64,000 nucleotides of DNA from a virus: IMG/VR virus record IMGVR_UViG_3300027977_000027, positions 9,021 through 73,020 of that record, one strand, 5' to 3'. The position numbers and the translations under genes are program-made. This document shows positions 2,740 through 38,464 of the stretch, piece by piece. Position 1 is the stretch's first letter, and every line of letters starts with the position of its first letter. The notes under the pieces are model-generated. The model saw only the letters and a list, made by a program, of their open reading frames with translations, was not told where the DNA came from and did not search any database.

Positions 2740-3105
2740 ATGGAAAACTGTAAATTCCCTCTCGTTATTGTCTTTTACCTAGACAGCGAACTTATGAAAA
2801 ACCCACAAATCATAAAACCTTTTGCTGAATCTATTGATAAGATGTTAGCTTTTAAAAAAGCTAATGCGTTGGCTTTCTTTTTACCAACAAATGGTGAAGA
2901 ACGTGTTGAATGTATCAATCCAGTTACGGTTAAAGAAGAAGATATGGAAAAAGTAAATAAATTGATTCAAGACATCAAACAAAATTTCTCTATAGGTGTT
3001 GAAATGGATTTACCAGTTGATGAAGTTGTTGTTGAAGATGAAACCGAAGGAGGTAAACCATGTGATTGTGGAAGTAACCCAGATGGAAAATGTAAATGTG
3101 ATTAA
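2740..3105 (+). CDS. Hypothetical protein with Cys-rich C-terminus
   Basis: ORF ending CDCGSNPDGKCKCD. Confidence 0.7.
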   Translation: MENCKFPLVIVFYLDSELMKNPQIIKPFAESIDKMLAFKKANALAFFLPTNGEERVECINPVTVKEEDMEKVNKLIQDIKQNFSIGVEMDLPVDEVVVEDETEGGKPCDCGSNPDGKCKCD

Positions 3106-3106
3106 T

Positions 3107-3295
3107 ATGAACCATCAAGAAAAAGCAATTTTATATGATAATTGCATTCGTGAAAGCGATAGACTTCAGAGAGAAAACTCTAAATTAAAATCAGAATATG
3201 TCGCTAATATACCGCCACATATAGAGAAACAAATAAAAAACAATGATGCTAGAATTGCCGTACTTGTTGCTAGACTAGAAAGTCTTTTTAAGTAA
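3107..3295 (+). CDS. Hypothetical coiled-coil protein
   Basis: ATG directly after the previous stop codon. Confidence 0.6.
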   Translation: MNHQEKAILYDNCIRESDRLQRENSKLKSEYVANIPPHIEKQIKNNDARIAVLVARLESLFK

Positions 3296-3298
3296 ACA

Positions 3299-3976
3299 AT
3301 GGATAAATCTAATATTTTAGCTTTCTTAAATAGACATTACAGAATCGAAAACGATTCTTTTTTTGATATTACGTTAGATAAAAAAGTTTATGGTTCTGAC
3401 ATATTGGAACATTTGAATGTGGTGTTTTCAATAGACGAAAACATAAACAAAGAATTAATAAAGGAATGGGCGTTAAAAACAATAACATTAGAAACCTTTC
3501 AAGAAAATTGGGAATTCAATAGACCTATTCCAGAGGTTGGTAGATATGAATTAAAAAGAATGAATAGATTTATAATAACATTTCCAGAACACTTCAACAT
3601 ACCACAATGGGTTGCTCTTGAAACATCTAGACCATCAGCTAGATTAATAACGAAAGATATTTTAGGTTTTAAATTGTTTAAGAAATTTGTTTGGGATGAT
3701 ATGATTATAAAAATGAGAGACCCAATTGGCCCATCAACATCACAATCTCTTATGGATTTAATTCATAAAAGTTTATATGAAAAAAAACAAATAATCAAAG
3801 ATAAATTTGATTTAAAATTAGAAATGCTTGACCCAGTAGGTCATGTTGTTGAAAAGTGGGCTCTTTCTAATTGTGAATTTAAATCTATCCATTTTGGTGA
3901 ACTATCTTACCAAATAGACGACCCAGTTGTTTGCTCTTTAGTAATTAAATTAGGTGATGTAGTACTTGAATATTAA
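3299..3976 (+). CDS. Protein with C-terminal T4 gp19-like tail-tube domain
   Basis: NRFIITFP...RPS...RDPIGPSTSQ...LEMLDPVGHVVEKW...FGELSY resembles myovirus tube proteins. Confidence 0.6.
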   Translation: MDKSNILAFLNRHYRIENDSFFDITLDKKVYGSDILEHLNVVFSIDENINKELIKEWALKTITLETFQENWEFNRPIPEVGRYELKRMNRFIITFPEHFNIPQWVALETSRPSARLITKDILGFKLFKKFVWDDMIIKMRDPIGPSTSQSLMDLIHKSLYEKKQIIKDKFDLKLEMLDPVGHVVEKWALSNCEFKSIHFGELSYQIDDPVVCSLVIKLGDVVLEY

Positions 3977-4629
3977 GGTCTAGTGCTACGTCTTCTTATT
4001 TTGGTATAAGGCCAATTTGTCTTATTGTGTATCAAGTCGTACATTCTACCTATATTAGCTTTACTGGCGGTACCCATAAACATAAGGCTTTTTATCTTTT
4101 GTTTTTTCGCTATTTTTGCTAATGTATGATGTAGCCTTTGAGCGTCTTCCATATTTTTACATAAAACCATATCAAATTGGTCTTCATTGTATATGATTAA
4201 TTTATTGTATACAACAATAATTTGCTTTACCATTTTTTTAGCGTGGGCCCCAGCAACCAACCTCTTAACAACTTCTTTTATTGTTGGTCTTTCTTTTTTT
4301 GGGTTAAAACCGTATATCCAAAATGTTTCCTCTATTTGATATTCATCTGAATGTAGGATGGTCCAATCACCCAAAGGTGGTTCTATATATGTTCTTCCAA
4401 AGTCATCCCTAAGAGTTCTAAATGTGTCTGTTTCTTCAGTTGGTTTTGTTACACATATTTGATACTTAACTGGTTTTATACCTTTTGTATTAATAAACTT
4501 TTGTGGAAACATCACTATATTTTCACCTTTTATTCTATGAAAATTAATGAATGCGGTTTCCCTAGTTCTACATCTATGTAGAGTTTTCTTGTAAATACCG
4601 TTTGCTATTAAAACTACTCTATATTCCAC
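3973..4629 (-). CDS. Hypothetical protein
   Basis: 218 aa ORF. Confidence 0.7.
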
Positions 4630-4686
4630 GATTTATTTGGATTGTTAAATAAATTTACGTATCTTTACAAAAAAATAAATACCAAT

Positions 4687-5667
4687 ATGTTTAGAAAAGA
4701 CTATTACGAAATACTTGGCGTAACAAAAGAAGCTTCAGCTGAAGAAATAAAGAAAGCTTATAGGGATTTGGCAAAGAAATGGCACCCTGACAAAAACCAT
4801 AACAATGCAGAAGCTGAAGAAAAGTTTAAAGAAATATCTGAAGCGTATGAAACATTATCAGATACGGTTAAAAAACACAAATACGATAATAATGACCGTT
4901 TTTCTGGTTTTAATTTTGATTTCTCAAGCATGGGTCGTCAAAGACCTATGAGAGTTGGGGAAAATATTAAGTTAAATTTAAAACTTACATTGGAAGAAAT
5001 ATTTTCTGGTGTTAAAAAATCATACAAATATAAAAGAAAAGATAGTTGTTCCTCATGCGATGGTCATGGCGGTAGTGATTCTCAAACTTGTCCAAGCTGT
5101 AACGGCACTGGAGCCGTTGTTCAAATATTTAACACACCTATAGGTCAAATTAGACAAGCCATGGAGTGTCCAACTTGCAATGGCTCTGGTCAAACGTATA
5201 AGGATAAATGTAACGTATGTAATGGTGAAAGTGTAAAATTGGTTGAAGAAACGATTGAGCTAGAGATACCATATGGCGTTGCTGATGGGGCTACATTTGT
5301 CATGGGTGGCAAAGGTAATGCAATTAAAAGTGGTAGACACGGTGATTTATATTTTGTGGTAAATGAGTTGCCACACCATAGGTTTGTTAGAGATGGAAAC
5401 AATTTAAAAATTAATTTAAAGCTATCGTACCCACAACTAGTATTGGGTGATAAGGTTGCAGTTGAAACAATTGATGGTAACAAAATTAGAGTTAATATAC
5501 CAGAGTACAGCCAATTAGATTCTAATTTAAAAGTTGTTGGTAAAGGAATGACTGAATTTAGAAGTGGTAATCGTGGTGATATGATAATAAATTTAGGGAT
5601 AACAATACCTAAGAAGATTGATGATGAGACTAAAGAACTCTTGGAAAAATTAAAGACTAAAATTTAA
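4687..5667 (+). CDS. dnaJ: DnaJ chaperone
   Basis: J domain with HPD, four CxxCxGxG-type repeats, C-terminal substrate-binding domain. Confidence 0.95.
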
Positions 5668-7513: not shown

Positions 7514-7870
7514 GGGGATATAAAGGTATTGACTGAATATAGTCGTAATTGGTAAGCATGTAGTGCTAGATGGAAGCACTTTAATCTCGCTATTAACACT
7601 TTTAGATGGCAACGATTTTGTTGTATCCGAAAATTTCCTTACCGAAGCTGCTTGCAGTTTCGCTGGAGAGCTTGCTGTAGCCTAATATAGCTGATAGTGA
7701 TAATTCACTTCATCGTGGTATGTTCCACGGCATGATGGTAGACCATTAGGGTCTCTTGATTTCCTTCACAAATAATCAAGATATTTTGTTTCGTTAGAAA
7801 ATGAGACTAAACATGTAGAAAGTCTTTCAAGAGTATTCAACACATGGGTTCGATTCCCATTATCTCCACC
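7514..7870 (+). ncRNA. ssrA: tmRNA
   Basis: 5' GGGGATA...GGTATTGAC; 3' GGTTCGATTCCC-ATTATCTCCACC with G3:U70; tag frame 7608..7685 GNDFVVSENFLTEAACSFAGELAVA*. Confidence 0.9.
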
Positions 7871-7917
7871 GTTGACTTTTTTGTACCTTGCCGTATATTT
7901 ATAATAAAAATAGATAT

Positions 7918-9730: not shown

Positions 9731-9805
9731 TGCGGGGTAGAGCAGTGGTAGCTCGCTAGGCTCATAACCTAGAGGTAGGTGGTTCGATTCCATCCCCCGC
9801 TACCA
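9731..9805 (+). tRNA. tRNA-Met(CAT), initiator-like
   Basis: Cloverleaf, loop CTCATAA, 1:72 mismatch, encoded CCA. Confidence 0.92.
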
Positions 9806-10658: not shown

Positions 10659-10702
10659 AAATTAAAATATTTTTAATACCTTTGTAAAAATATTTATTGA
10701 TT

Positions 10703-11281
10703 ATGAAAGATAATATCAAACAAATTCTTAGAGAAGGACTTATTCGTGAAGAACGTATCAAGTTTGATTTACGCATACCTAGTGATATACAAGAAATAAA
10801 AGACGTGTTTAAAAAGAACGGATTTAAATTGTATGTTGTTGGTGGTGCTGTACGTGATGCACTTTTAAATAAGACACCCAAAGACTTTGATTTGGCTACT
10901 GATGCAGTTCCAGATAAGGTTGAAGAAATAATGGCCAAGGCTGGATTCAAAACCCTTCCAACAGGCAAGGCGTTTGGGGTTATAAACGTATTTACCAGTG
11001 AAGGTGAATACGAAATTGCAACTTTTAGGTCTGATGAAACTTCTGGTAGAAATCCAGAAGTTAAATTAGGAGCAACAATAGAATCGGATGCTGCTAGAAG
11101 AGATTTACGAATTAATGCATTATATTATGATTTAGATACTAATGAAATAATTGATTTAGTTGGTGGGCTTGATGATTTAAAGAATGGTGAAATTAATATG
11201 GTTGGAAACGCACAAAAACGTTTTGAAGAAGACCCACTTAGAATTTTACGTTTTTTTAGGTTTTTTTCTAGATTTAACTAA
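10703..11281 (+). CDS. cca: CCA-adding / poly(A) polymerase family nucleotidyltransferase, N-terminal fragment
   Basis: VGGAVRD, DFDLAT, EIATFR, DAARRDLRINAL, RFEEDPLRILR; stops right after this motif. Confidence 0.9.
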   Translation: MKDNIKQILREGLIREERIKFDLRIPSDIQEIKDVFKKNGFKLYVVGGAVRDALLNKTPKDFDLATDAVPDKVEEIMAKAGFKTLPTGKAFGVINVFTSEGEYEIATFRSDETSGRNPEVKLGATIESDAARRDLRINALYYDLDTNEIIDLVGGLDDLKNGEINMVGNAQKRFEEDPLRILRFFRFFSRFN

Positions 11282-11330
11282 CTGAAGATACGTTTAGGGT
11301 TTTTCGTTATATTTATAGTAAAAGAATATT

Positions 11331-12200
11331 ATGCAAAAACTATGGAAAAAAGAAGAAATTGATTTATTGGTAAGATTATATGAAATTGATGGTTTATCTG
11401 TTACTGAATTATTTCCACTTTTCAACGAAAAATATAATAGGCCAATTATTGGTTTACAAGTTAAAATTGGTAGACTCAAACTAAGACATAGTAAAGAACA
11501 AATTAAAGCTATAAAGTCAAGATTAAATAGTGGTGAATTAAATGGTATGTTTGGTAAGAAATCACCTATGAAAGGGTTAACTTCAGAAACATCGGAAATA
11601 GTTAGAATTAAATCAGATAAAACATCTAAAACCAGAAAAGAAATGTTTAAAAATGGTGAGCTACAACCATTAACTGGTTCAACAAACCCTATGTATGGTT
11701 CTATATCTTGGAACAATGGTTTAAATAAATACATGGATAAACGTATATTTAATTATGGTGAAAAGATATCTAAAATTAAAAAAAAAGAGTGGGAAAATAA
11801 AACTGAGAATGAAAAAAGGGAAACAATACTTAGGTTAAATAACGCTATGATTCAAACAAAAAAACCGACTAAAATTGAAGATAAAATAGAAAACTTTTTA
11901 AAAGAAAATGAGGTAAAATATATTAAGAATAAACGTTACGATTTATTTATATTTGATTTCTACTTATTAGAATTTAATTTTGTGATTGAATGTGATGGTG
12001 ATTATTGGCACGCAAACCCTTTATTTTATAATGGTAAAAAATTAACTGATGCACAAATAAAAAATATAGAAAGAGATAAAAGAAAAAATTTGTTATTAGA
12101 ATCAAACTTAATTGATTTTGTTAGGTTTTGGGAGTTTGATATTAAAAATAATTTTGAAATAATAAAAAAAACAATATGGGAGAAATTACAAAAGAAATAG
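11331..12200 (+). CDS. Vsr-like/DUF559 endonuclease splitting the cca gene
   Basis: NGMFGK and NPMYG repeats; FDFY...IECDGDYWHANP...VRFWE. Confidence 0.8.
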   Translation: MQKLWKKEEIDLLVRLYEIDGLSVTELFPLFNEKYNRPIIGLQVKIGRLKLRHSKEQIKAIKSRLNSGELNGMFGKKSPMKGLTSETSEIVRIKSDKTSKTRKEMFKNGELQPLTGSTNPMYGSISWNNGLNKYMDKRIFNYGEKISKIKKKEWENKTENEKRETILRLNNAMIQTKKPTKIEDKIENFLKENEVKYIKNKRYDLFIFDFYLLEFNFVIECDGDYWHANPLFYNGKKLTDAQIKNIERDKRKNLLLESNLIDFVRFWEFDIKNNFEIIKKTIWEKLQKK

Positions 12201-12778
12201 ATATTGCTTTGAAAAACACTGTTCATTTATTAAGTGGTATATCTAGTGAACGTATCCGTGATGAATTTATTAAAGGTATTGTTTCAGCAAAGTCACAAAA
12301 AGACTTTTTGGGGATGTTGGATAAGTACAAGTTATTTGATTGGATATTCAAAGGTTTGGATGTGGATATGGGATTTGTTAACAGACTTGGTGGTTATAAT
12401 CATGATGATTATATTGTATTGTTAGCAAGACTTCTTAAGAAAAACAACTTAGATTTATTGAAGAAAAAATTGAATGAATTAAAATATTCAGTTGAAGAAG
12501 TAAAAACCATAACTTTCCTTATTGCTATGTTAAAGCTAGATGTTGATACTGCTGTAACACTTAAAAGAGCTGAAAAAAATTCTGGTGTAACTCCAGACCA
12601 AATTAGGGATTTTTGTGGTAAGGAAAATGTAAGTAGTCAATTACTAGATGCTTTTGAGGAATTTAGACTAACAGTTAGTGGTCCAGAAGTTATGGATGAC
12701 TTGGGGTTAAAACCAGGACCAGAACTTGGAAAAGCAATTCAAAAGATTGAAACGGATAATTTCAAAAAACTTTTATAG
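12176..12778 (+). CDS. cca: CCA-adding enzyme, C-terminal fragment
   Basis: ISSERIRDEF.K and C-terminal G.EVM..LGLKPGPELG motifs. Confidence 0.85.
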   Translation: MGEITKEIDIALKNTVHLLSGISSERIRDEFIKGIVSAKSQKDFLGMLDKYKLFDWIFKGLDVDMGFVNRLGGYNHDDYIVLLARLLKKNNLDLLKKKLNELKYSVEEVKTITFLIAMLKLDVDTAVTLKRAEKNSGVTPDQIRDFCGKENVSSQLLDAFEEFRLTVSGPEVMDDLGLKPGPELGKAIQKIETDNFKKLL

Positions 12779-18068: not shown

Positions 18069-19193
18069 ATGTTAGCAATACAAAAATTTATTATTGAAAA
18101 TGGTTTAGCAAAAGCCATAACTGAGTTCAACCTTAAATCTAGGGTTTATGAACATAAGATTCTTTTAAAATACGACCAATTATCAGCGCCATCATTGATG
18201 GCATTACCAGAGGTTCAAGAATGTCGTGGTCTTATCTTAGAAAGAAACTCTTGGAAAGTTATGTCGTTAGCATTTACCAAGTTCTTCAATTCCGAAGAAG
18301 GCAACGCACATAAAGTTGATTGGAACACTGCACATGTCTTAGAAAAACTTGATGGTACATGTATTCAAGTCTATTATGACTGGAACAACATGACTTGGTA
18401 TGCTGGAACAACAGGAACTGCCGATGGTGAAGGTGAGGTTAACAATAAAACTGGCACAACGTTTAACCAATTATTTTGGAAAACTATTAAAGAAAAATAT
18501 AATTTAGAAGCGTCAAAATTTAACGCTGGTTACACTTATGTATTTGAATTAACAACACCTTATAATATCGTGGTTAAACCTCATGGTGAATCATCAGCCA
18601 CATTATTGACTGTTAGGAATCTAGAAACTTTGGAAGAAGTTTCATTTGAAGAACTAACAACAATAGCTGAAGAATTGGGAGTACCACGTGTTAAATCTTA
18701 CGATTTAAACGCTAAGAATGTTGGTGCTTTGATAAAAACGTTCGTTGGTATGGTATGGCATGACGAAGGTTATGTTGTGGTTGATGCTAACCATAACCGA
18801 GTAAAGATAAAGAACCCAGCTTATGTACATGCACATCACCTTAAAGGTAAGATGGGTAACCATCATATAATGGGGATAATCAAGACCAACGAAATTGAAG
18901 AATTTGCTTCTACATTCCCAGAAAGAAAGAATGAATTGTATAAGTTAAAAACAAACTATGATGCGTTAATCACAAAGCTAAACTTTGTTTGGGATGAACT
19001 TAAAACTTTGCGCCCAAAGAATATAACACCAGAAGAAAAGAAAAAATATGCGCAAGCAGTATTTGAAGTTTGTGATAAAAGAGAAGTTAAAAACTTCACT
19101 GGTTTGTTTTTTGGGTTAAACGATGGAAAAGTATCTTCTGTTGAAGACTTCATGTTAAAATATGATGATAAAGCCTTGTACAAAATCCTCTAA
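18069..19193 (+). CDS. RNA ligase, T4 Rnl1 family
   Basis: ECRGLIL, AFTKFFN, EKLDGT, FEL, EGYVV, RVKIK. Confidence 0.88.
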   Translation: MLAIQKFIIENGLAKAITEFNLKSRVYEHKILLKYDQLSAPSLMALPEVQECRGLILERNSWKVMSLAFTKFFNSEEGNAHKVDWNTAHVLEKLDGTCIQVYYDWNNMTWYAGTTGTADGEGEVNNKTGTTFNQLFWKTIKEKYNLEASKFNAGYTYVFELTTPYNIVVKPHGESSATLLTVRNLETLEEVSFEELTTIAEELGVPRVKSYDLNAKNVGALIKTFVGMVWHDEGYVVVDANHNRVKIKNPAYVHAHHLKGKMGNHHIMGIIKTNEIEEFASTFPERKNELYKLKTNYDALITKLNFVWDELKTLRPKNITPEEKKKYAQAVFEVCDKREVKNFTGLFFGLNDGKVSSVEDFMLKYDDKALYKIL

Positions 19194-20009: not shown

Positions 20010-21419
20010 ATGACAATTAAAGAAATCTTCGATGAAATTGCTGCTGAATCAAGCACCAACCAAAAAATGGAAATCCTTAAAAAATATAAGGATAATGAAT
20101 TGCTTAAACGTGTGCTTTATTTGGCCAATTCAAAGCGAGTTAAATTCTTCATCAAACAAATCCCAGCGTACACTCACAATACAATTGGTTGGACTCTAGA
20201 AGAAGCGTTGAATATGCTTATGACTATAGCTAATCGTGAGTTTACAGGTCAAAATGCTATAGATAAATTAACTATTTGGTTAGAGAATGTATCAACTGAT
20301 GATGCATATATCATTGAGCGTATCATTGAAAAAGATTGCAAAATTGGTATGGGAACAACCTTCATGAACAAGGTATTCAAAGACCTTATCGAAGACACAC
20401 CATACATGGGTGCAATATCGTTTGATGAGAAAAAAGCTCGTTCTATCTTTGATAATGGTGGTCGTGGTATATCTCAAATAAAAATGGATGGTCGTTATTG
20501 TAACGCTATCATTCGTTCTGGTGAAGTTGAATTGGAGAGTCGTAGTGGTGAAGCGACAATAGTAACTGGTGCCAAATTCTTGAGTGAATTAGCATCATTT
20601 CAAGATTGTGTGTTGAATGGAGAATTGACAATGGATGGCGTACCACGTTACGAATCTAATGGTATTATTGCTTCAGTTATTGACATACAAAGCAAACGTG
20701 GTGAACGCACAGAAAAAGAAACAGCTAAGAAGCTTGAAGCTTTTGAAAAGAAACATGGTAGCTTTGAAAAAGCTTTGAACTCTATTCGTTATACTGTATG
20801 GGATGTTATTAGTATTGATGAATATTTTAACAAACTTTCAAAAATACCTTATTTGGTACGTTTGGCTAAAGTTGAGCGTTTGATTTCCGAGTCTAACACC
20901 ACTATGGTTAAGATGATTGAAAGTCGTATTGTACATTCATACAAAGAAGCTATGGACCACTTTCAAGAAGTCCTTGCAACTGAAGTTGATGGTGTCCCAC
21001 AAGAAGGGACGATTCTTAAATCTGATGCTGGGACTTGGAAAGATGGCAAACCAAACTGGCAAATCAAACTAAAAATCGAGATGAATGTTGATTTAAAGAT
21101 AGTTGGGTTTAATTATGGAACCAAAGGTACTAAAAATGAAAATGTTATTTCGTCTTTAGTATGTGAATCCTCTGACGGAAAATTGGTTACTCAACCACAA
21201 GGTTTGAAAGAATCTTATATGAAACACATAACTGAAAATCAAGATAAACTTTTAGGGTCTATAATTGAAGTTAAGTGTTCTGGTCTTTCTAATGACGTAA
21301 CAGGTGCATATTCACTTATGTACCCAGCATTTAAAAGTTTTAGAGACGATAAAAATGTTGCCGATTCATTAGATGATATTATTGCTAATGAGAAAATGAT
21401 AAAGGGTGTTACTGTTTAA
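20010..21419 (+). CDS. ATP-dependent DNA ligase
   Basis: KMDGRY, LNGEL, VWD, EGTILK, IKLK, OB fold. Confidence 0.92.
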   Translation: MTIKEIFDEIAAESSTNQKMEILKKYKDNELLKRVLYLANSKRVKFFIKQIPAYTHNTIGWTLEEALNMLMTIANREFTGQNAIDKLTIWLENVSTDDAYIIERIIEKDCKIGMGTTFMNKVFKDLIEDTPYMGAISFDEKKARSIFDNGGRGISQIKMDGRYCNAIIRSGEVELESRSGEATIVTGAKFLSELASFQDCVLNGELTMDGVPRYESNGIIASVIDIQSKRGERTEKETAKKLEAFEKKHGSFEKALNSIRYTVWDVISIDEYFNKLSKIPYLVRLAKVERLISESNTTMVKMIESRIVHSYKEAMDHFQEVLATEVDGVPQEGTILKSDAGTWKDGKPNWQIKLKIEMNVDLKIVGFNYGTKGTKNENVISSLVCESSDGKLVTQPQGLKESYMKHITENQDKLLGSIIEVKCSGLSNDVTGAYSLMYPAFKSFRDDKNVADSLDDIIANEKMIKGVTV

Positions 21420-22176
21420 TGGCAAACCATTTAACATAATCTTTATATTGATTTAACACCTCTTTTTTTATAGTTTTACCAGTATAAATTGGTTTACCAT
21501 TATTGTAGTATGATTTTCGTAATGCTTTAGTTGGTAAACCATTTTCTTTACATATAGTTTCAAAATCACCATTACAAATAAATTTTAGGTTGTTATTTGA
21601 ATCGTAAATGTTTATTTTTATAGCAGCTGGGTTTTTATCTTTAACCATTTTACCTTTCATTCTATTAGACATTTTTATTTTCTCTTCATCAGAACGTTTA
21701 AGACCAGTGATAGCCTTAATAACATTTAATCTATGTGTTTCTGATTTTTTAATACCAGACATTTTTTTAGATTGTTTTTCTTTAGATTCATGAGTGCGTT
21801 TAGTACCTAATTTAGCTTGTCTCATTCGTTCTTTTGCTATTTCTGAAAAATAGTAATCTTCACGACCGCCACCACCTTTTGTCATATTATAGCCATTTAC
21901 ATAAGAATCAAACTTATTAATATATTTTATTTCTAATTCATTGGCTTGTTTAATATTTGTAATACCAGTTTCTAATATCTCCCAAGTAAAATTATCAATT
22001 GTGTATTTCCTAATAGCTTGATGAAACTTAAATTTACTTTCTATTTGGCTTTCATATATGTGTTCATATTTGCGGACGTTAAAATCACGGCTGGTAAGAC
22101 CAATATAAGTTTTATTGTTAATTTTATTGGTAATTTTATAAATGATATATGTTTTATTTTTCACGTTTAAGTTCAT
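21409..22176 (-). CDS. GIY-YIG homing endonuclease with NUMOD3 repeats
   Basis: IIYKITNKINNKTYIGLT...GYNMTKGG. Confidence 0.9.
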   Translation of the reverse strand: MNLNVKNKTYIIYKITNKINNKTYIGLTSRDFNVRKYEHIYESQIESKFKFHQAIRKYTIDNFTWEILETGITNIKQANELEIKYINKFDSYVNGYNMTKGGGGREDYYFSEIAKERMRQAKLGTKRTHESKEKQSKKMSGIKKSETHRLNVIKAITGLKRSDEEKIKMSNRMKGKMVKDKNPAAIKINIYDSNNNLKFICNGDFETICKENGLPTKALRKSYYNNGKPIYTGKTIKKEVLNQYKDYVKWFAIKQ

Positions 22177-22522: not shown

Positions 22523-22987
22523 ATGAAAAAACATATTTCATTCCCATCTATTGAGCAATTTAGAAATGTTGTTGGCACCGTAAATCGCCAATACAATTTT
22601 GTTGGTTTGGATGAAAATGGTGAAGCTATTTATGATTCTTCACTACCTAAACCAGTTCTAACATTTAAAGGTACCGTCAAAATTCACGGTTGTTTTGACA
22701 AGGATAGTTTAGTTATGTTAGCTAATGGCGAAGAAATACCAATATCTGAAATTAATGTTGGTGACCAAGTTTTATCTTATGATATTGAAAATGGTAAGTT
22801 TATAGAAAAAGAAGTTTTACATACTGAAAATAAAGAGTCTGATAAAAAATGGTTAAAATTAATTTTTGATAATGATTCTTTTATTGAATGTACTGAAGAC
22901 CATAAATTTTATACAATCAATAGAGGCTGGGTTGAAGCTAAAAATTTAACAGAAAATGATATTTTTTTGGAATCAATGATGATTTAG
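22523..22987 (+). CDS. Rnl2-family RNA ligase N-extein fused to split intein N half
   Basis: ...TVKIHG then CFDKDSLV (block A) and IECTEDHKF (block B TxxH). Confidence 0.9.
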   Translation: MKKHISFPSIEQFRNVVGTVNRQYNFVGLDENGEAIYDSSLPKPVLTFKGTVKIHGCFDKDSLVMLANGEEIPISEINVGDQVLSYDIENGKFIEKEVLHTENKESDKKWLKLIFDNDSFIECTEDHKFYTINRGWVEAKNLTENDIFLESMMI

Positions 22988-23047
22988 CATTAGTTTCGTG
23001 AATACCTACATATTTATATTAAATAATAAAATATAAATAAAGGTAAA

Positions 23048-23884
23048 ATGATTCTAAAGACTTGGTGTAAATTAGTTAATGGTCGGTTTGGTTATGTTAA
23101 GAAAATATCTATGAAAACTGAACCTATAAACGAGGTTTGTTGTGATATATGTTGTAAAATATTTGAAGAAAGAGTTAAAGACACGTTAGAAAATGAAAAT
23201 AAATGGGGTAAACAACTTTGTGGTCGGTGTCGTAAAATTGAAAATGGGAAAAATTTTGGTAAAATTGGTGGTAAAATTTTAAAATCTTTTACTAAAGAAG
23301 AAAAAAGTAAAATATCTAGTGATGCTGGTAAAATTTCACATAAGAAAAATCCAAATAATAAAGGTAAATTTAGTACTGAAAGGTGGAATAATATGAGTGA
23401 ACTCCAACAAAAACAGCAAGTAACTAAAGCTAATAAAGCATTACATGATAAACTTAATAGTGATGAAAATTTAAAACGTGAACATTTTTTAAAGGTTTTT
23501 AAAAATAGTAAAATAGGTTTTACAAGTAAAGGTCATAACGAATTACATTTATTTTTAAAGGAGTTTGGTTTTAAGCAACATGAACAAATTTTAAATATGG
23601 AAGTTGATGAATGTAATTTAAACTTAAAAATAATTATAGAATTTAATGGTGATATGTACCATTGTAATCCTAGGAAATGGAAACCTAACGATTATAATAA
23701 AGTAATTAAAATGACGGCTAGTGAAAAATGGGGAAAAGATAGAAACAGGTATTATAAATTAAAATCATTAGGTTATATTACATTTGTCGTTTGGGAAGAA
23801 GATTGGGGTTTAAATCGTGAAAAAACTAAAGAAAAAATACTTAAATTTATAAATAAAAGAAAATATGAAATTAAAAAAAATTGA
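23048..23884 (+). CDS. Free-standing Vsr-like endonuclease between the intein halves
   Basis: CxxC pairs; IIEFNGDMYHCNP...GY...VVWE. Confidence 0.8.
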   Translation: MILKTWCKLVNGRFGYVKKISMKTEPINEVCCDICCKIFEERVKDTLENENKWGKQLCGRCRKIENGKNFGKIGGKILKSFTKEEKSKISSDAGKISHKKNPNNKGKFSTERWNNMSELQQKQQVTKANKALHDKLNSDENLKREHFLKVFKNSKIGFTSKGHNELHLFLKEFGFKQHEQILNMEVDECNLNLKIIIEFNGDMYHCNPRKWKPNDYNKVIKMTASEKWGKDRNRYYKLKSLGYITFVVWEEDWGLNREKTKEKILKFINKRKYEIKKN

Positions 23885-24860
23885 AAAAATTGAAAATAAA
23901 AAATCATATGATATATCTGTTAAAGATACTAATTGTTTTTTTGTTAATGGTATATTGGTCCACAACTCCAACGCTGGAGTTTGTTTTAACAAGTCAGATG
24001 GTATTTGGGTTCAATCACGTGAAAACATTATCACACCATTATCAGATAATGCTGGATTTGCTTTCTTTGTTGAAACAAATAAAACTGCTTTTTTGGAAAT
24101 TTTAAATCAAATTGCTGAAAAATTTGAAATTAATTTAGATGAAAACACTATTTCGCTTTATGGTGAATGGGCTGGTTCGTCAATTCAAAAAGGTGTTGCT
24201 ATCACAAACATCCCAAAATCATTTTTTATTTTTGGTATTAAAATAACACCACATGTTGAAACAGATGAAGAAAGAAAAGAAAAACCAGCATATTGGGTAG
24301 ACTACACCACTTTTAAAAATGTTGAAGCGAAAATTTTCAATGTAAACGATTTTAAAACATTTGAAATCGAGATTGATTTTAAACATCCAGAATTGGTTCA
24401 AAATAAAATAGTAGAAATGACATTATCGGTTGAAGAAGAATGTCCTATTGCTAAAGAATTTGGTTTTTCTGGTGTTGGTGAGGGTATTGTCTTTACTTAT
24501 GTAAATGATAAAGGTCAAAGAGTTTCTTTCAAGTCTAAAGGTGAAAAACATGCAACTGGTTCTAAAGTAAAAACAGTAAAACCAGTTGATGATGTTAGGA
24601 TTGCAAAACTTCAAGAATTAGCTGATAAAGTAACACCAGAATGGAGATTGGACCAAATGTTAACTAATACATTTAATCTTATTAACGGTGGTGAATTAGA
24701 TATTAAACGTTTAGGTGAATATATTAAAAATGTTTCGTTTGATGTTCTTAAAGAAGACGCTGATATTATTTCGGACGCTGGTTTTGAATTCAAAGATATT
24801 GTTAAGTATGTGTCAGAAATAGCTAAAAAATATTTTTTAGTTAAATATAATAATATTTAA
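23865..24860 (+). CDS. Split intein C half fused to Rnl2-family RNA ligase C-extein
   Basis: YDISVKDTNCFFVNGILVHN then SNAG...QSR...LYGEW...GEGIV...FKSK. Confidence 0.9.
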   Translation: MKLKKIEKIENKKSYDISVKDTNCFFVNGILVHNSNAGVCFNKSDGIWVQSRENIITPLSDNAGFAFFVETNKTAFLEILNQIAEKFEINLDENTISLYGEWAGSSIQKGVAITNIPKSFFIFGIKITPHVETDEERKEKPAYWVDYTTFKNVEAKIFNVNDFKTFEIEIDFKHPELVQNKIVEMTLSVEEECPIAKEFGFSGVGEGIVFTYVNDKGQRVSFKSKGEKHATGSKVKTVKPVDDVRIAKLQELADKVTPEWRLDQMLTNTFNLINGGELDIKRLGEYIKNVSFDVLKEDADIISDAGFEFKDIVKYVSEIAKKYFLVKYNNI

Positions 24861-33577: not shown

Positions 33578-33654
33578 GGAATATTAGTAGAGTTGGTTAC
33601 AATATCGCACTGTCACTGCGAAGGTCACGGGTTCGAATCCCGTATATTCCGCCA
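33578..33654 (+). tRNA. tRNA-Asp(GTC)
   Basis: tcgca-CTGTCAC-tgcga, G73, encoded CCA. Confidence 0.93.
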
Positions 33655-36590: not shown

Positions 36591-36714
36591 TGGGAGGTGG
36601 CCAAATTGGTAAAGGCAGCGGTAATGCAAAAAGTTTAATCTGTATAAGATTAAGTTCAGCAAAAAAAAAGCTAATGGAAACCGCCATTTGTAGGTTCGAG
36701 TCCTACTCTCCCAA
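36591..36714 (+). ncRNA. tRNA-like RNA with 57 nt in place of the anticodon loop
   Basis: Acceptor tgggagg/tctccca, D arm gcc/ggc, stem gcggt/accgc, T arm gtagg-TTCGAGT-cctac. Confidence 0.7.
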
Positions 36715-37546: not shown

Positions 37547-38464
37547 CTAGCGTAAAATAACACCTAATAGTTCATCAATCTTATTTAATTCATTAAATTT
37601 AACCCTAATTAAGTTAGGGTTTTCTTTTTGGTCACAATACAATGTTTTAATTTTATCTCGTTTCTTTATTAATGCCAAATTATTGTTCTTATTATTAAAA
37701 ACACTAACCTCTTTAAAATGTTGTTCTCCATCATATTCTATACATACATTATATTCTGGTAAATAAAAATCAAACGGTAATGGTCGAATATCACGACAGT
37801 CTGAGAATTTATGTTGTCTATTGTAGTGAATCTTATGTGTATCCAACCATTTAGCTATTTCACGTTCACCCTTAGATTCACGACATATTGGACAACCATT
37901 TTTATTTGATATATGGTCATTTGGTGTCTGCTCAAACTCACCATGTTCTGGACATATAATGGTAACTTTTTTATTTATTTTTTCATAAACTACCTTAGAG
38001 TAATCATAAAAATTACCATGTACCTCAATTGATTTTTTTATGAAATATTCATTATTTTTAGTTCTATTATTAGACCTAGTTAGTAACCCACATGCTTGAC
38101 ATCCATAACCAAATAAATGATTGGATACCGTTTGCTCAAACTCACCGTGTTCTGGACAACCTATTTTTATTTTCTCACTAGTTTTGTCAAACGTGACTTT
38201 AGAGTAGTCATACTTGTTATTATGTTTTTTATTTGCTTTTAATAGGAATGCTGCTAAATTTATTTTTACACCACCGTTACATTTAGGGCAACCGTGATTT
38301 CTAACATGACTATCTGGTGTCTGCTCAAACTCACCATGCTCTGGACATATTATGGTAACTTTAACGTGTGGTCCTAGATAGACTACTTTAGAATAATCGT
38401 ATTTAGTACCATGACTTTTTATTGCTCTAGCGATAAAATTCTTTTGTTTAGTTTCTTGATTCAT
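37547..38464 (-). CDS. Endonuclease with three Zn-ribbon repeats (DUF723-like) and Vsr-like C-terminus
   Basis: 3x YDYSKV...CPEHGEFEQT...GC..C; PFDFYLP...IEYDGEQHF. Confidence 0.85.
   Translation of the reverse strand: MNQETKQKNFIARAIKSHGTKYDYSKVVYLGPHVKVTIICPEHGEFEQTPDSHVRNHGCPKCNGGVKINLAAFLLKANKKHNNKYDYSKVTFDKTSEKIKIGCPEHGEFEQTVSNHLFGYGCQACGLLTRSNNRTKNNEYFIKKSIEVHGNFYDYSKVVYEKINKKVTIICPEHGEFEQTPNDHISNKNGCPICRESKGEREIAKWLDTHKIHYNRQHKFSDCRDIRPLPFDFYLPEYNVCIEYDGEQHFKEVSVFNNKNNNLALIKKRDKIKTLYCDQKENPNLIRVKFNELNKIDELLGVILR

Follow-up and report, generated by a model that had tools for sequence, protein, structure and literature searches.

Several phage genes exist as "genes in pieces," among them nrdA of Aeromonas phage Aeh1 with mobE, genes 39 and 60 of phage T4 with mobA, and gene 43 of Aeromonas phages (PMC2988022). 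The locus analyzed here is a cca gene, for a class II tRNA nucleotidyltransferase, on a viral DNA stretch of 64,000 nucleotides (nt), "the window," which comprises bases 9021 to 73020 of the 73-kb IMG/VR record IMGVR_UViG_3300027977_000027 (estimated to be 21% complete; GC content of the window about 30%). It shares with genes in pieces the existence of collinear one-piece homologues and an open reading frame (ORF) for an endonuclease between the two halves, with neither an intron nor an intein. The enzyme is encoded as two genes because this mobile endonuclease gene sits between the halves, and the product is probably a two-subunit tRNA nucleotidyltransferase, the halves of which would come together with neither splicing nor extra tails.

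The nrdA-a/mobE/nrdA-b locus of Aeh1 is likewise an enzyme gene that was broken by a free-standing homing endonuclease gene in a region critical for function, and it contains no intron or intein (Edgell et al. 2010, PMC2988022). The two Aeh1 polypeptides must reassemble and their function was shown, whereas reassembly of the cca products is predicted by a structural model. Enzyme and oligomeric state differ between the two cases, and the Aeh1 endonuclease is of the HNH type but that of the window is Vsr-like/EDxHD. Insertion-derived tails on both Aeh1 fragments are essential for activity, according to Crona et al. 2010 (PMC3045599); the cca halves have one residue added each. Since the halves gain only this one residue, any assembly of the cca product must use the native contact between the head and the neck. 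Tails that mediate assembly are a property of the Aeh1 case and not necessarily one of genes in pieces.

Other known systems have endonucleases related to that of the window. The SbcD-like locus of Dassa et al. 2009 (PMC2677866) has an endonuclease of the same Vsr-like family and the same order of N-half, endonuclease, and C-half, and it is also devoid of an intein. It concerns a different host gene, however, has inserted ends of 25 and 9 residues beside the break that are not present in cca, and is a single locus, while cca offers many diverged alleles plus a defined moving cassette. Those fractured genes of the same study that have split inteins also contain this endonuclease family between their halves, with the downstream half overlapping the end of the endonuclease gene as in cca, but they carry Int-N and Int-C parts and are presumably ligated by trans-splicing, whereas the cca halves have no intein parts. 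I-Bth0305I, the EDxHD prototype (PDB 3r3p; Taylor et al. 2011, PMC3239194), has a related C-terminal nuclease domain with the shared E, D, H, and D residues; its gene lies within a recA group I intron, unlike the free-standing endonuclease gene of the window, and the likeness covers the nuclease domain. Splitting of genes by free-standing endonucleases was already known. The present analysis adds the resolved cassette, a one-piece allele of the donor type, and the tail-less geometry. A full-text search of the literature gave no report of a CCA-adding enzyme in split form, but the supplements of PMC2677866 and PMC3239194 with their lists of family members were outside this search and may include a cca locus.

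Features of the split cca locus

All three genes are on the plus strand, and the two terminator-like sites of the locus are on the minus strand. The N-half at positions 10703 to 11281 (alternative start at 10697; 192 or 194 amino acids [aa]) encodes the head domain of a class II tRNA nucleotidyltransferase and ends with ...EDPLRILRFFRFFSRFN followed by a stop codon (RFFSRFN-TAA). A spacer of 49 nt (11282 to 11330) leads to the ATG of the free-standing homing endonuclease gene at 11331 to 12200 (289 aa), the C-terminal domain of which, about residues 174 to 289, is Vsr-like/EDxHD. The C-half for neck, body, and tail at 12176 to 12778 (200 aa) has a new ATG and starts with MGEITKEID. Endonuclease and C-half ORFs share 25 nt (12176 to 12200), which means that 22 nt of endonuclease coding sequence before its stop codon overlap the C-half in another frame, and N-half and C-half are in one common frame. 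The three-ORF layout with its 49-nt gap and 25-nt overlap, which had been described in the initial annotation, was found again by ORF listing.

The N-half matched the PolyA_pol head in Pfam (PF01743, E 3.3e-37); the C-half matched PF12627 (E 4e-9) above the cut-off and PF13735 under it. Both halves were assigned to phrog_2244, tRNA nucleotidyltransferase, in PHROGs, the N-half covering positions 2 to 149 and the C-half 156 to 387 of the 392 positions of this profile. In the PDB, the best matches of the N-half were CCA enzymes, such as human TRNT1 (4x4w, E 1.3e-31). The N-half contains GGAVRD, DFD, RRD, and EDPLR, which we take to be the motifs GGxVRD, DxD, RRD, and EDxxR of the PolyA_pol head, and 30 split N-halves share the invariant residues G47, G48, R51, D52, D61, D63, R132, R133, D134, E176, D177, and R180. 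Human TRNT1 (4x4w/1ou5), the Geobacillus enzyme 1miv, the one-piece relatives on the viral contigs L003 to L012, and the one-piece metagenomic protein P0293 possess the same head motifs in the same order, but on one polypeptide instead of two. The features of a class II enzyme are present, with the head domain in the N-half and the neck/body region in the separate C-half ORF, and the insertion point directly follows the motif-D helix, where head and neck meet. In annotations, halves of this kind appear as a pair of "tRNA nucleotidyltransferase" genes, which may mislead annotation and pangenome counts.

Collinearity with one-piece enzymes

The ten relatives from L003 to L012 are one-piece enzymes of 374 to 418 aa in stop-to-stop frames and can be aligned across the junction, which has the form ...EDRLRILRAIRFAGRFG-NELDPATDAALQKDASLEGISGERIRDEF in one-piece enzymes and ...EDPLRILRFFRFFSRFN-stop and MGEITKEIDIALKNTVHLLSGISSERIRDEF in the split halves. 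The junction ...LRFFRFLSRFGGEITKEID... of P0293 corresponds to both split ends: residues 1 to 191 of the N-half align with 1 to 191 of P0293, and residues 2 to 199 of the C-half with 193 to 385. As judged from this collinearity of the proteins, a single Gly would have been exchanged for Asn-stop ... Met with no residues missing, equivalent to a net insertion of 903 nt at 11276 to 12178 in which the Gly codon became AAC-TAA ... ATG. Each half gained a single residue, N192 and M1, respectively.

Because the halves are collinear with one-piece enzymes and have one residue added per side, there is no room for intein halves, and a Pfam search of the two cca halves yielded neither a Hint nor an intein family, so that an intein in cca was rejected. 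Protein trans-splicing by a split intein in the manner of the "fractured genes" of Dassa et al. would have a precedent close by, since the RNA ligase gene in the same window has exactly this layout with the same endonuclease family. For cca, this explanation has next to no chance of being correct, considering the missing Hint domains and the lack of space.

A cryptic self-splicing intron enclosing the endonuclease ORF, or another kind of recoding, might restore a continuous mRNA or protein. Group I introns are known to harbor endonucleases of this family, as in recA of Bacillus phage 0305phi8-36 (PMC2677866 and PMC3239194), and the common frame of N-half and C-half would agree with such a process. 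Between 10600 and 12900, however, Rfam yielded no intron family at E<=10, the sole match being a snoRNA at E=5, although a core hidden under the ORF would be possible, and the 49-nt spacer, which is all that precedes the ORF, folds no better than shuffled sequences (z -1.18). A group I or II intron was rejected on these grounds. Moreover, the ORF extends 22 nt into the C-half coding sequence, the in-frame TAA belongs to the conserved cassette, and all 29 stand-alone C-halves that were aligned have a conserved, ATG-initiated N terminus. Restoration of a single mRNA or protein in this way is very improbable. Translational bypass of the 49-nt gap, as in T4 gene 60, was also rejected: it would enter the endonuclease ORF, which is in another frame, with the C-half 900 nt off. 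The collinearity, the missing Hint domains, and the missing intron matches all support a split by a free-standing endonuclease without an intron or intein, which had been claimed in the initial annotation.

The residues at the junction differ between the two kinds of alleles. At three columns, one-piece enzymes have A (41/46), I (32/46), and A (42/46), and split alleles F (27/30), F (24/30), and F or L (28/30). A compensation after the split by aromatic or hydrophobic residues was considered and is not supported as such: the junction is the same in P0293, which is a one-piece protein, and human TRNT1 reads LRYFRFYGR at this place. The junction residues of the split alleles are traits of the donor lineage.

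The endonuclease and its moving cassette

Pfam gave a weak DUF559 match (E 0.0012, 19.1 bits with a cut-off of 20.6 bits) and DUF6831 for the endonuclease ORF, which also matched homing-endonuclease PHROGs. The single sequence had no match in the PDB when searched with phmmer, but a profile of the window protein and five full-length relatives matched Escherichia coli Vsr (1cw0, E 1.3e-6; 1vsr, E 1.1e-5) and I-Bth0305I (3r3p, E 2e-4) over residues 174 to 289, approximately, in agreement with the label "Vsr-like" given before. E183, D209, E220, H227, and D249 are invariant in these six sequences, and the HMMER alignment pairs them with E25, D51, F62, H69, and D97 of Vsr. The roles of the residues that define EDxHD enzymes, including a Glu at the position of Vsr Phe62, are those given in PMC2677866 and PMC3239194. 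Viral contigs yielded 106 relatives covering at least the nuclease domain, and the ratio of nonsynonymous to synonymous substitution rates (dN/dS) among relatives was 0.23 to 0.54. The endonuclease probably cuts endonuclease-free cca alleles near the insertion site.

Indirect evidence for homing comes from a near-identical cassette in diverged surroundings and from the borders of co-conversion; cleavage itself is putative. Compared with L002, a viral contig with the same split, the window has 3 mismatches in 1300 nt (99.8% identity) from 10945 to 12244, a tract on the plus strand that contains the 3' part of the N-half, stop, spacer, endonuclease gene, new ATG, and the first 23 or so codons of the C-half, while the flanking cca sequences are only 77 to 88% identical. 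The endonucleases agree in 288 of 289 residues. When the window was compared with its closest syntenic one-piece relative, L009, blastn similarity ended at 11023 and restarted at 12236, and alignments and sliding identity define the tract in between, 11024 to 12235, as the one without blastn similarity. The cassette takes along about 260 to 330 nt of upstream and about 60 to 70 nt of downstream cca sequence. Contigs from three further lake or sediment runs, one of them resembling the L002 type, also contain the cassette, with mismatches or unlike sequence beginning at the same borders. Judged by these identities, the cassette has reached the window genome recently. A blastn search of 50,697 phage records with the locus as query gave a single match of 155 nt.

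Since the imported flank in the N-half resembles the P0293 lineage, the odd flanks of the cassette are donor sequence carried along with the endonuclease and not the result of accelerated evolution. Accelerated divergence of the 3' part of the N-half was discarded accordingly, as import from a P0293-like lineage fits better. The locus would be a clean example of cassette homing, in which donor exon sequence remodels a host gene in one step, with borders located to a precision of tens of bases.

The endonuclease family also occurs in a second cassette architecture, observed on L028, a 362-kb viral contig. Here (positions 2998 to 5066), a 57%-identical endonuclease is located upstream of a one-piece cca, the start of which is foreign in comparison with the near-identical phage L008: identity is 97.6% in the upstream gene, 52 to 77% over the first 600 nt or so of cca, and 88 to 100% in the remainder. 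This shift indicates a recombination border at the same codon region as the split, which would fit a cleavage site there.

Recurrence of the split

The identical break with an overlapping C-half ATG is present on the viral contigs L002, L030, L031, L032, and L162; L145 has the same break site but is cut by the contig end. Among the best 120 near-length matches to the N-part, 40 end at the head/neck site, and 29 of the best 120 matches to the C-part begin like MGEITKEID, the start M-x-x-x-T/N-K/R-E-I-D being common to all 29. Twelve pairs of an N-half and a C-half protein agree in the length of their longest contig, and the members of each pair may therefore be encoded together on one contig. 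A scan of metagenomes gave 80 loci, which were mostly one-piece, with two split at the head/neck site and one at the second break site described below; the window locus is present in runs from lake water and freshwater. From these comparisons, the head/neck split is widespread beyond the window phage. The cut is natural and recurrent, and it separates the catalytic head of a class II CCA-adding enzyme from the tRNA-binding part exactly at their border.

This recurrence bears on an alternative in which the insertion killed cca and the halves are a young, undecayed pair of pseudogenes, the phage using the CCA-adding enzyme of its host instead. The recent arrival of the cassette in the window genome would be in line with a dead gene. 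On the other hand, the split was kept with endonucleases that are just 43 to 57% identical to that of the window (five of the six contigs, all but L002), the two halves being open frames and the overlap at the ATG being retained throughout, and the same ends recur in the 40 N-half and 29 C-half protein clusters mentioned above.

Two fusion-like arrangements were seen. On L032 (358 to 6365) and in P0242 to P0244, the N-half is in frame with a long upstream protein, and the L032 C-half continues into an 838-aa frame with further domains; both may be fusions or gene-call artifacts.

A second, independent break site of cca is located after EYEIATFR in the catalytic loop of the head (L013, 1866 to 4183; L149; P0064 to P0118; P0137 to P0229). 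By a regular expression that misfiles at least P0070, 43 of the best 120 N-part matches end there. Additional conserved peptides are present on both fragments, for example DLEGFKNYLKSLNNGKYEEFL as a tail and MEKWEQIAKEFF.KEFEGFK as a head. The insert of L013 contains a 232-aa ORF, GIY-YIG-like by eye, and a 91-aa ORF and gave no intron match. P0335 is a one-piece protein with an insert of about 75 aa at this second site.

Putative function of the two halves

Constraint on the halves was evaluated at 67 columns that are at least 95% conserved in 46 one-piece relatives. The conserved residue was kept in 1603 of 1671 cells of the split N-halves (96%) and in 317 of 319 of the C-halves (99%), a test that mixes residues diverged before and after arrival of the cassette; the sole systematic changes were T to R in RRDLxIN and the last residue. 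Between the window and L002, dN/dS was 0.15 for the N-half and 0.10 for the C-half, but because the cassette arrived recently these values may mostly reflect evolution before the split. Deep pairs of halves had proportions of nonsynonymous differences (pN) of 0.29 to 0.52 compared with proportions of synonymous differences (pS) of 0.65 to 0.79, with pN far under pS in all pairs, although dS is saturated in these comparisons.

The complex of N-half and C-half was predicted with a score of 0.82 in three runs, in contrast to 0.00 for the best of three controls; of the solved complexes, 58 of 80 attained the mark used for this evaluation, as did 2 of 110 mismatched pairs. The runs agreed in at least 92% of the contacts, the predicted local distance difference test (pLDDT) of the partner was at least 90, and the modeled interface joins residues 165 to 192 of the N-half to residues 1 to 53 of the C-half. 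The pair in this way passed the structure prediction suggested before, but the pass may reflect the solved structures of one-piece CCA enzymes, and what the model shows is likeness to the intramolecular head-neck contact of these enzymes rather than binding of the two chains.

The tRNA genes of the window would provide substrates for such an enzyme: 9 of the 11 found by ARAGORN have no encoded CCA, as had been claimed for most of them, and the other two, at 9731 to 9805 and 33578 to 33654, do encode it.

Besides the limits given with these numbers, several points weigh against a functional two-subunit enzyme. The window copy had little time for decay even if it were dead. None of the RNA runs searched contains the locus, and two metatranscriptomes among them match next to nothing. 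Promoter-like sites in the 3' part of the endonuclease gene, 19 in number, do not exceed the frequency in shuffled sequences (14.8 +/- 3.6). A Shine-Dalgarno-like sequence was not found before the C-half ATG, nor before the other window genes inspected. A C-half profile matched no solved structure in the PDB by sequence. Finally, sequence fixes only the superfamily, so that CCA-adding, CC-adding, A-adding, and poly(A) activities are not separable.

A dead gene would agree with the lack of the locus in the RNA runs and with the two tRNAs that bring their own CCA, and any cut one-piece enzyme would give the modeled interface. The retained conserved positions and the low pN of all pairs, together with the recurrence, argue against it, and loss of function is an unlikely explanation. 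The heterodimeric tRNA nucleotidyltransferase that had been postulated is supported by recurrence, residue conservation, pN far under pS, and the predicted complex, and it stays a putative enzyme.

Alternatively, the halves may act apart, the head as a minimal nucleotidyltransferase and the C-half as a separate factor that binds tRNA or has another role, and would then form no stable complex. A short CCA-like protein of 249 aa beside a related endonuclease on L029 would fit, as would the gene calls of P0242 to P0244, which fuse N-halves to an unrelated upstream protein. However, class II enzymes require the C-terminal part for tRNA binding, N- and C-halves adjoin in all six loci split at the head/neck site that are complete enough to judge (window plus five contigs), and the interface residues are conserved and were modeled at low error. 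Independent action of the halves is quite improbable.

Proposed origin and assembly

In the proposed sequence of events leading to the two-subunit enzyme, a Vsr-like (EDxHD) free-standing endonuclease gene would have been inserted into a phage class II cca. The cassette of about 1.3 kb includes cca sequence of the donor to either side of the endonuclease gene, with the stop codon of the N-half and the ATG of the C-half, and because it carries this stop and the new ATG, one homing event would turn a one-piece cca into two genes. Homing was shown for relatives of the endonuclease family and is presumed for the window cassette. The 192-aa head and the 200-aa neck/body would be made as separate polypeptides with no RNA or protein splicing, the C-half probably by re-initiation or translational coupling at its ATG within the last 25 nt of the endonuclease gene. 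The halves would re-associate non-covalently by the native helix packing predicted in the model, and the resulting enzyme would serve the phage's own tRNAs, most of which have no encoded CCA.

If the halves cooperate with no peptides added for their interaction, contact of head and neck is enough for assembly, unlike in the tail-dependent Aeh1 reductase, and the locus would be a natural template for the design of split CCA enzymes.

A wider scenario would treat the cassette as self-contained and "split-ready," with P0293-type donor exon ends, a stop, and a start, so that one round of homing would convert any resident one-piece cca into genes for a two-subunit enzyme that is chimeric and has no tails. 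In addition, synthesis of the tRNA-binding subunit would be coupled to translation of the endonuclease by the conserved overlap of 25 to 28 nt, and phage cca would be a hotspot with two break sites, at which selfish endonucleases repeatedly turned a monomer into an obligate heterodimer by two assembly solutions. This scenario as a whole is rather doubtful. If true, the coupling would tie the capacity for repair of tRNA 3' ends to expression of a selfish gene.

Genomic neighborhood

A second gene of the window is interrupted by the same endonuclease family, as stated in the initial annotation. This RNA ligase gene extends from 22523 to 24860: an N-part ending in an intein N-part (22523 to 22987; Hint, E 1.6e-10; Intein_splicing, E 8e-10) is followed by a DUF559/Vsr-like ORF (23048 to 23884) and a C-part (23865 to 24860) with an intein C-part at its start and then PF09414 RNA_ligase. 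Split-intein halves are present here, and the endonuclease is weakly similar to that of cca (BLASTP, E 0.002). One genome contrasts split-intein and intein-less fractures from one endonuclease family.

In addition to the 11 tRNA genes, the window contains a phage tmRNA (transfer-messenger RNA) at 7514 to 7871 (Rfam, 76.5 bits; tag peptide GNDFVVSENFLTEAACSFAGELAVA according to ARAGORN). A T4 Rnl1-type RNA ligase is encoded at 18069 to 19193 (PF09511, E 1.8e-17) and a GIY-YIG ORF at 21409 to 22176 on the minus strand (PF01541, E 2.4e-5). Judged by its gene content, the region with cca, the tRNAs, and two RNA ligases resembles a module for repair and maturation of tRNA with many selfish endonucleases.

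Two further sites were observed. At 36591 to 36714, Rfam matched a tRNA (43.6 bits) with 57 nt in place of the 7-nt anticodon loop of the model, and ARAGORN made no call; the sequence suggests a tRNA gene with an insert or intron of about 50 nt. On the minus strand at 37547 to 38464, a 305-aa ORF contains repeated treble-clef zinc-finger modules (DUF4379, DUF723), and its C terminus shows weak tblastn similarity (E 0.002) to the cca endonuclease in the nuclease domain; this ORF may encode another homing endonuclease.

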